Positions 61,525 to 61,545 of a DNA stretch of 64,000 nucleotides are shown piece after piece (position 1 is the first letter of the stretch; every line of letters begins with the position of its first letter). This stretch comes from Enterobacteria phage T6. The DNA is taken from sequence record MH550421. One strand, given 5' to 3'. The notes below the pieces were generated by a model. The model did no database searches, was not told the DNA's origin, and saw nothing but the letters and a program-made list of their open reading frames with translations. Both the position numbers and the translations under genes were made by a program.

Positions 61525-61545
61525 TATTTATAGAAGGTATTTATA
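61525..61545 (-). promoter_or_regulatory. tandem late promoter motifs TATAAATA upstream of e
   Basis: two rc TATAAATA copies (61525-61532, 61538-61545) 14-34 nt upstream of e ATG. Confidence 0.6.

Follow-up and report, generated by a model that had tools for sequence, protein, structure and literature searches.

In the 64,000-nucleotide stretch of Enterobacteria phage T6 analyzed here (sequence record MH550421; the whole stretch is referred to as the window), the lysozyme gene e follows the Nudix hydrolase gene nudE on the minus strand. The two genes are separated by a 37-nt spacer between the nudE stop codon (61549-61551) and the e ATG, and this spacer holds the leader under study. A preliminary description of the same DNA had noted two T4-type late promoter boxes of sequence TATAAATA between nudE and e and a single box upstream of soc, the gene for the small outer capsid protein. 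All three were found to be exact minus-strand matches, and Pfam assignments (NUDIX and Phage_lysozyme) support the identity of the genes flanking the pair. The upstream and downstream boxes of the pair, here termed P1 and P2, start 34 and 21 nt before the e ATG, respectively, and form a 12-nt direct repeat with 11 of 12 bases identical at a spacing of 13 nt; the soc box starts 38 nt before its ATG. A 1.6-kb query around the e boxes was 100% identical to phage T6 AP018814.1 and matched hundreds of Tequatrovirus records at 92-97%. The T6 e leader is identical to that of T4 over the 82 nt compared, in agreement with the proposal in the preliminary description that the boxes are gp55-type late promoters. 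The coordinates of all features are collected in Table 1.

Table 1. Genes, promoter boxes and predicted RNA structures discussed in the text (window coordinates unless stated; SD, Shine-Dalgarno sequence).
Feature	Position	Strand	Basis or remarks
e (T4-type lysozyme, 164 aa)	61017-61511, stop included	minus	Pfam Phage_lysozyme 1.4e-13; lysozyme in AP018814
nudE (Nudix hydrolase)	61549-61989	minus	Pfam NUDIX 3.3e-13
P1, upstream e late box TATAAATA	61538-61545	minus	exact match; promoter positions -13 to -6
P2, downstream e late box TATAAATA	61525-61532	minus	exact match
e hairpin 5' arm UUUAUAAAUACCUUCUA	61531-61547	minus	RNA fold; contains P1 box
e hairpin loop UAAAUACU, 8 nt	61523-61530	minus	RNA fold
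e hairpin 3' arm UAGGAGGUAUUAUGAA	61507-61522	minus	SD GGAGG 61516-61520 and AUG 61509-61511
soc (small outer capsid protein, 81 codons + stop)	14970-15215	minus	Pfam Soc 2.3e-55
soc late box TATAAATA	15246-15253	minus	exact match; predicted +1 G15240
soc inner hairpin	15212-15244	minus	5' arm UCAUGUAAUUU (15234-15244) / 3' arm GAAUUACAUGG (15212-15222)
soc outer clamp	15199-15267	minus	CCGCGAG (15261-15267) / CUCGCGG (15199-15205, codons 4-6)
gene 49 (endonuclease VII)	coding sequence 43078-43548	minus	Pfam Endonuclease_7, Endonuc-dimeris
gene 49 leader	43547-43587	minus	variant late box AATAAATA 43578-43585 in hairpin 5' arm
rI.1 late box TATAAATA	57588-57595	minus	downstream of tk; 23 nt from box end to ATG (57564)
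regB	60494-60955	minus	Pfam REGB_T4
sigma70/T4-early-type promoter GTTTACT-17-TATAAT, extended TG	60983-61011	minus	scan; regB promoter
Three early promoters and terminator upstream of e	T6 record 6648-6675, 7038-7066, 7375-7403, 7542-7565; window-equivalent 64447-65364

T4 late promoters consist of an octamer (the Christensen and Young consensus) at positions -13 to -6 and need no -35 element; A at -13 is the commonest natural variant of the octamer, and A/T residues are preponderant, though not required, just downstream of it (Geiduschek and Kassavetis 2010, PMC2988020). The hexamers directly 3' of the T6 boxes are CCTTCT (P1), CTTAGG (P2) and ATCATG (soc), each with 3-4 A/T residues out of six. 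Like gp55 late promoters generally, the e and soc boxes share the exact octamer and lie close upstream of late-expressed genes, for lysis and capsid, respectively. Typical T4 late promoters drive late genes in late regions, whereas the region of the e and soc boxes is transcribed early, and the boxes also serve as structural elements of an RNA switch.

The window contains five exact copies of TATAAATA, at 4899 on the plus strand and at 15246, 57588, 61525 and 61538 on the minus strand. This total is approximately 2-fold below the 10.95 +/- 3.0 copies expected from dinucleotide shuffles, and Markov models of orders 1-3 likewise predict about 11 copies per window. Enrichment of the octamer was therefore rejected as promoter evidence, since the count falls below expectation, and what is informative is where the boxes stand. 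Of the five, four are located 21-38 nt 5' of a same-strand start with an SD and an ATG, a zone that makes up 3.3% of strand positions (binomial P = 5e-6). Among 56 octamers of equal base composition, TATAAATA ranks 8th lowest in the window, and its scarcity would fit a selective removal of stray late-promoter sequences from an early region. The plus-strand box (4899-4906) lies antisense within an open reading frame (4600-4971) with no gene start downstream.

RNA folding of the e leader yielded a hairpin in which the promoter boxes and the ribosome-binding site occupy opposite parts of one structure. The P1 box is embedded in the 17-nt 5' arm, the P2 box covers the final 2 bp of that arm and most of the loop, and the 3' arm comprises the SD and the AUG. 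The predicted stability is -16.4 kcal/mol (z = -3.9), a value reached by none of 200 shuffled sequences, and an 11-nt inverted repeat was detected at the leader independently of the RNA fold. A search of Rfam returned no family match anywhere in the window. Because the T4 octamer occupies positions -13 to -6, late transcription is predicted to start near T61532/A61531 from P1 and near G61519 from P2. The remainder of the 5' arm would thus amount to 2 nt in the P1 RNA and 0 nt in the P2 RNA.

In order to quantify masking of the start site, an opening cost was calculated as the free energy required to make positions -15 to +5 single-stranded, with read-through RNAs begun 60, 150 and 300 nt upstream. 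This measure replaced the mean unpaired probability over -13 to +3, which proved blunt and, for soc, misleading. The opening cost of the e ribosome-binding region was 15.2-16.3 kcal/mol in read-through RNA compared with 3.5-3.9 kcal/mol in the P1 RNA and 1.1 kcal/mol in the P2 RNA. Likewise, the unpaired probability of the SD was 0.00 in read-through RNA versus 0.68-0.74 in the late RNAs, and that of the AUG was 0.03 in read-through RNA. Among 75 minus-strand starts in the window (median 5.8 kcal/mol), e has the fifth most occluded ribosome-binding region. The hairpins at e and soc are absent from the preliminary description, which thus missed the key mechanism.

Taken together, it is almost certain that the T6 e leader represents the classical T-even arrangement of late promoters placed within a translation-masking hairpin switch. 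Early in infection, RNA polymerase from sigma70-type promoters several kb upstream would transcribe through nudE into e. In the resulting long RNA, UUUAUAAAUACCUUCUA, including the P1 box, is predicted to pair with UAGGAGGUAUUAUGAA, which carries the SD and the AUG; ribosomes would be blocked from starting and therefore no premature lysozyme would be made. After the onset of DNA replication, polymerase programmed by gp55, gp33 and gp45 would start approximately 6 nt downstream of each e box. The late RNAs, with starts near 61532 and 61519, would lack the 5' arm and therefore present an open ribosome-binding site from which lysozyme could be translated. As the late promoters lie within the hairpin, only late-initiated e RNA would be translated.

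This switch has been known since the 1980s and was noted explicitly for T6, so that the present result is a rediscovery and not a new finding: a review describes the mechanism in T4 e, and the T6 leader is identical. In T4, the translation initiation regions of four genes, e, soc, 49 and I-TevI, have been described as bearing inhibitory structures (PMC3014915). According to the same review, McPheeters et al. (1986) showed that T4 early transcripts reach e and form the inhibitory structure; the e structure was probed, the leader structure reduces T4 lysozyme synthesis approximately 100-fold, and either late promoter of the pair gives an RNA that is translated well (PMC3014915). T6 is listed there among the phages with an e leader identical to that of T4 (Uzan and Miller 2010, PMC3014915). 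The leader, the two boxes, the hairpin and the nudE and e flanks are the same in T4 and T6, with no difference in the element itself. By analogy through this identical leader, the promoter activity, the 5' ends from the upstream promoter, the probed structure and the roughly 100-fold repression reported for T4 would be expected to apply to T6 as well.

The preliminary description had further cited an early promoter at 60983, alongside the boxes, and had proposed dual early/late control, taken here to mean that e is expressed additively from this sigma70 promoter early and from the two TATAAATA boxes late. The promoter itself is genuine as a sequence match, with a good fit to the sigma70/T4-early consensus at 61011 to 60983, and early T4 transcripts do include e (PMC3014915). 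Its position is another matter. It is placed 3' to the end of e (stop codon 61017-61019), within the 61-nt spacer that separates e from regB and 5' of the regB ATG at 60955, and not upstream of e on the coding strand; directed into regB, it is ruled out by gene order as a source of e transcripts. In T4, regB is preceded by the same promoter, with vs.3 as its upstream neighbour and e 3.7 kb away. Furthermore, the SD and AUG are fully paired in the early read-through e RNA, which is reported to be untranslated (PMC3014915). With the promoter 3' of e and assigned to regB, dual early/late control does not hold in the form proposed, and additive expression of this kind is given practically no credence. 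The net outcome is late-only lysozyme synthesis, the opposite of dual control.

The early RNA that reaches e would be read-through RNA made from promoters far upstream. A scan of positions 61550-64000 for an early promoter serving e yielded only weak intragenic sigma70-like matches, and the minus strand showed no terminator-like site from e up to the end of the window at 64000. Past the end of the window, the T6 record shows that an early-type promoter (GTTTACA-16/17-TATTAT or TACTAT) is present in each of the spacers that precede e.6, e.7 and e.8, and that a strong intrinsic terminator lies 5' of the e.8 promoter. We infer that these three promoters are the likely sources of the read-through RNA. 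Two further elements were observed in the region. A good sigma70-like match (TTAACT-17-TATAAT with TG) occurs at 61092-61120 on the minus strand, in the 3' part of the e coding sequence, approximately 75 nt before the stop codon. Between e.6 and e.5, a GC-rich palindrome (AGGGGCCGAAGCCCCT, 63805-63820; GGGGCUUCGGCCCC on the minus strand) corresponds to a hairpin with a UUCG-type tetraloop; it is not followed by a T-run on the minus strand and may be an RNA-stability or processing element.

To establish whether the arrangement is shared beyond T6, e leaders of related phages were compared. The 81-nt e leader was at least 99% identical in 141 phage records, T2 and T4 among them. A sample from IMG/VR provided 22 T4-like lysozyme loci with 16 distinct e leaders, down to 70% lysozyme identity, and covariation was judged from per-sequence folds of these 16 leaders. 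In all 16, a (T/A/G)ATAAATA box lies 28-35 nt before the ATG and merges into the 5' arm of a hairpin that sequesters the SD, with fold z-scores from -2.7 to -6.3. The arms are lineage-specific while the pairing is kept (CCUUCUA/UAGGAGG, CCUCCUA/UAGGAGG, CUCCUAUC/GAUAGGAG, CCCCU/AGGGG and CUCCUAUA/UAUAGGAG); in the CCCCU/AGGGG lineage the SD itself is altered. The second box occurs only in the T4/T6-type leaders, and 12 of the 16 distinct leaders carry a single box at the P1 position. The other leaders have short loops, one of which reads TATAAACG and matches the box at 6 of 8 positions. The single box fused to a covarying hairpin thus appears to be the widespread, ancestral form, and the tandem second box appears to be an elaboration of the Tequatrovirus group (T4/T2/T6). 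The box-in-arm design was already shown for close relatives in Figure 5 of PMC3014915.

These comparisons also bear on the function of the stem. T4-type stem-loops adjacent to promoters have been read as terminators or attenuators (promoter-early stem-loops, PeSL, PMC2839356), and the main role of the e hairpin could accordingly be to terminate or attenuate transcription, or to affect RNA stability, where nudE ends, with the box overlap arising from AT-richness. However, the 3' arm consists of the SD and AUG themselves, and the pairing tracks SD changes across lineages. In addition, a terminator-like T-run was looked for on the minus strand at the e hairpin and not found, the placement of the boxes is highly non-random, and both structure probing and a translational effect are reported for T4 (PMC3014915). 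An attenuator or stability function as the main role is therefore considered very improbable, and masking of the ribosome-binding site is retained as the function of the e hairpin.

The soc leader is a single-box version of the same design. As in the T4 soc class, it has one TATAAATA box and a predicted start within the 5' arm of an AUG-covering hairpin. The box is situated in the last codons at the 3' end of the preceding open reading frame (stop 15232-15234; soc ATG 15213-15215). The structure differs from that of e in that the SD lies in the loop, with the AUG alone paired in the 3' arm of the inner hairpin, in the presence of an additional outer GC clamp enclosing both the box and the inner hairpin, and in the small computed gain. 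A stability of -24.1 kcal/mol (z = -4.8) was predicted for the 91-nt leader, with an AUG unpaired probability of 0.00. Late initiation at G15240 would delete exactly the UCAU that pairs with AUGG, together with the outer clamp, which is absent from the late RNA. In the long RNA the SD and the AUG are predicted to be paired at e and the AUG at soc, and the predicted late start falls within or beyond the 5' arm clearly at e and weakly at soc. Across relatives, a T/AATAAATA box was present 37-42 nt upstream of the soc ATG in 13 of 13 cases, and 12 distinct leaders keep the box and hairpin architecture with differing arm sequences. In distant relatives, an AUG-covering stem of 10-13 bp is formed by other sequence, and AUG accessibility rises from approximately 0.01 to 0.3-0.6.

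Several results weigh against the interpretation of these leaders as start-site switches. The exact T6 e start sites are predictions from the -13 to -6 rule. The predicted P2 start falls within the SD, so that the RNA would begin with GAGG, all that is left of the SD, and relatives manage with a single box, so that the second may add little. For soc, the opening cost in the T6/T4-type leader drops only from 9.5 to 7.2-7.4 kcal/mol, and the AUG unpaired probability is just 0.01-0.04 in the modelled late RNA, where the AUG stays mostly paired because of an alternative, weak partner in the coding region. Owing to this small energetic gain, soc fits the published model less strongly than e, leaning more on the literature and on conservation than on computed energetics.

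The observations on P2 raise the question of whether P1 is the only box that matters, P2 being a lineage by-product of the loop sequence or of the 13-nt duplication with little contribution. The predominance of single-box leaders and the truncation of the SD by the predicted P2 start agree with this view, as does the legend of the review figure, in which mapped T4 e 5' ends are marked for the upstream promoter only (PMC3014915). The text of the same review, on the other hand, credits either late promoter with a well-translated RNA. P2 is also an exact consensus match, the octamer being depleted about 2-fold in the window, it is kept across the T2/T4/T6-type leaders in the 141 records noted above, and its RNA has the lowest opening cost (1.1 kcal/mol). 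A negligible role for P2 is thus regarded as unlikely, and both boxes are treated here as parts of the e switch.

A search for variants of TATAAATA with one mismatch revealed a further box, missed by the exact-octamer search, in the leader of gene 49. The variant box (AATAAATA) is situated 37 nt upstream of the open reading frame and belongs to the 5' arm of a hairpin masking the SD and the AUG, as in the T4 gene 49 class, and the opening cost was 16.1-16.6 kcal/mol in read-through RNA versus 2.6-3.1 kcal/mol from the predicted late start. Gene 49 is thus the third instance of the e/soc device in the window; I-TevI, the fourth member of the class in T4, lies outside it. The box upstream of rI.1 in the same window, whose neighbours were identified by Pfam as TK and Antiholin (tk and rI.1/rI), is by comparison an ordinary late promoter, at which no hairpin switch was found (4.2 versus 4.0 kcal/mol to open). 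The ribosome-binding region of rI (ATG 57339) is strongly structured (15.5 kcal/mol) through a local GGAGGCC/GGCCUU hairpin with no promoter inside.

The most occluded ribosome-binding region in the window belongs to regB, the gene served by the promoter at 60983. This early promoter is itself located within a hairpin (60956-61015, minus strand; z = -4.0), the 5' arm of which is formed by the promoter spacer (UUCCUCUUGACUG...) and the 3' arm by the SD (...CAGUUAAGAGGAG). The opening cost was 19-21 kcal/mol in RNA coming from e versus approximately 3 kcal/mol in RNA from the gene's own promoter. The regB leaders of T6 and T4 differ by one base, although their upstream neighbours differ, and in phages with 77% and 68% RegB identity the stems read UAGUUG/CAACUA and CUGUAAG/CUUACAG, with SD pairing kept; the regB pairing thus covaries across three lineages. 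In T4 reviews, the regB promoter is described as a typical early one, and the gene as autoregulating through cleavage of its own SD. The reviews consulted on regB do not mention the hairpin, which may nevertheless have been described already, and novelty is not claimed.

Similar features were observed at three more early genes, with minus-strand ATGs at 12780, 7579 and 50406, each preceded by a GTTTAC-type promoter whose spacer or -10 element is complementary to the gene's own SD; opening costs were 14-18 kcal/mol in read-through RNA versus 3-6 kcal/mol from the gene's own start. Eight of the 12 promoter-proximal genes showed no such hairpin pattern, and a rank test of these 12 against 66 other genes was not significant (p = 0.078). 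A threshold test gave 4/12 versus 3/66 (p = 0.009), with a cut-off picked after seeing the data. Predicted masking by early-promoter hairpins is therefore treated as a subset phenomenon and not a rule. MotA-box-like TATGCTTTA motifs were also noted upstream of the minus-strand ATGs 30741 and 37685, where occlusion was moderate (10.4 and 12.7 kcal/mol, respectively); these could be middle-promoter versions of start-site-dependent masking.

The regB arrangement resembles the PeSL cassettes of RB49 and phi1, whose stem-loops were taken for terminators and sites of recombination (Arbiol et al. 2010, PMC2839356). In both, a sigma70-type early promoter is intergenic, a stem-loop lies between or over the -35 and -10 elements, and gene content at the site varies among related genomes. 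The difference is that at T6/T4 regB and at the other three genes the SD itself forms the 3' arm, which suggests translational masking of read-through RNA. It is tentatively proposed that a promoter within a hairpin masking the ribosome-binding site is a device not confined to the four late cases, and that early genes including regB use promoter of origin as a general translational gate; this is a possibility to which we assign less than even weight.

The neighbourhood of regB also differs between the two phages. The spacer between e and regB (60956-61016) spans 61 nt in T6 as against 3762 nt in T4 (NC_000866 62741-66502), so that e is followed by regB in T6 and by ipIII in T4. The T4 insert of approximately 3.7 kb between regB and e (vs.3 to vs.8, denV, ipII and ipIII) is missing at this position in T6, and a blastn search with T4 65000-66502 (ipII and ipIII plus part of denV) gave no match within the T6 window. 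The T6/T4 breakpoint lies right at the -35 element of regB.

Comparison with AP018814.1 indicated that many product names in that record were clearly mis-transferred: Soc is labelled 'terminase small subunit', NudE 'glutaredoxin' and the open reading frame at the e.2 position 'DNA primase', and several small open reading frames are named 'rI antiholin' or 'tail' proteins. Small indels separate the window from AP018814.1, with the coordinate offset rising from 0 to 3 to 5. The practical value of the present analysis is in annotation, as the T6 record carries neither the boxes nor the hairpin as features and its product names are unreliable.

The e switch prevents premature lysis even though the lysozyme gene sits in an early transcription unit, and the leader is a clean example of translational control by choice of transcription start. 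The comparative result, with a single box as the apparent ancestral form and the tandem box specific to T4/T2/T6, is a modest refinement of the published figure. If the early-promoter hairpins do act as proposed, the principle would also apply, through the regB-type architecture, to a second class of promoter, and PeSL-like cassettes would gain a translational role. Such a gate would insulate T-even genes from upstream transcription and could help explain early mRNAs that yield late proteins, which would link the early-promoter hairpins to a discrepancy, so far unexplained, between when transcripts and when proteins appear in T4 omics data (PMC9697503).

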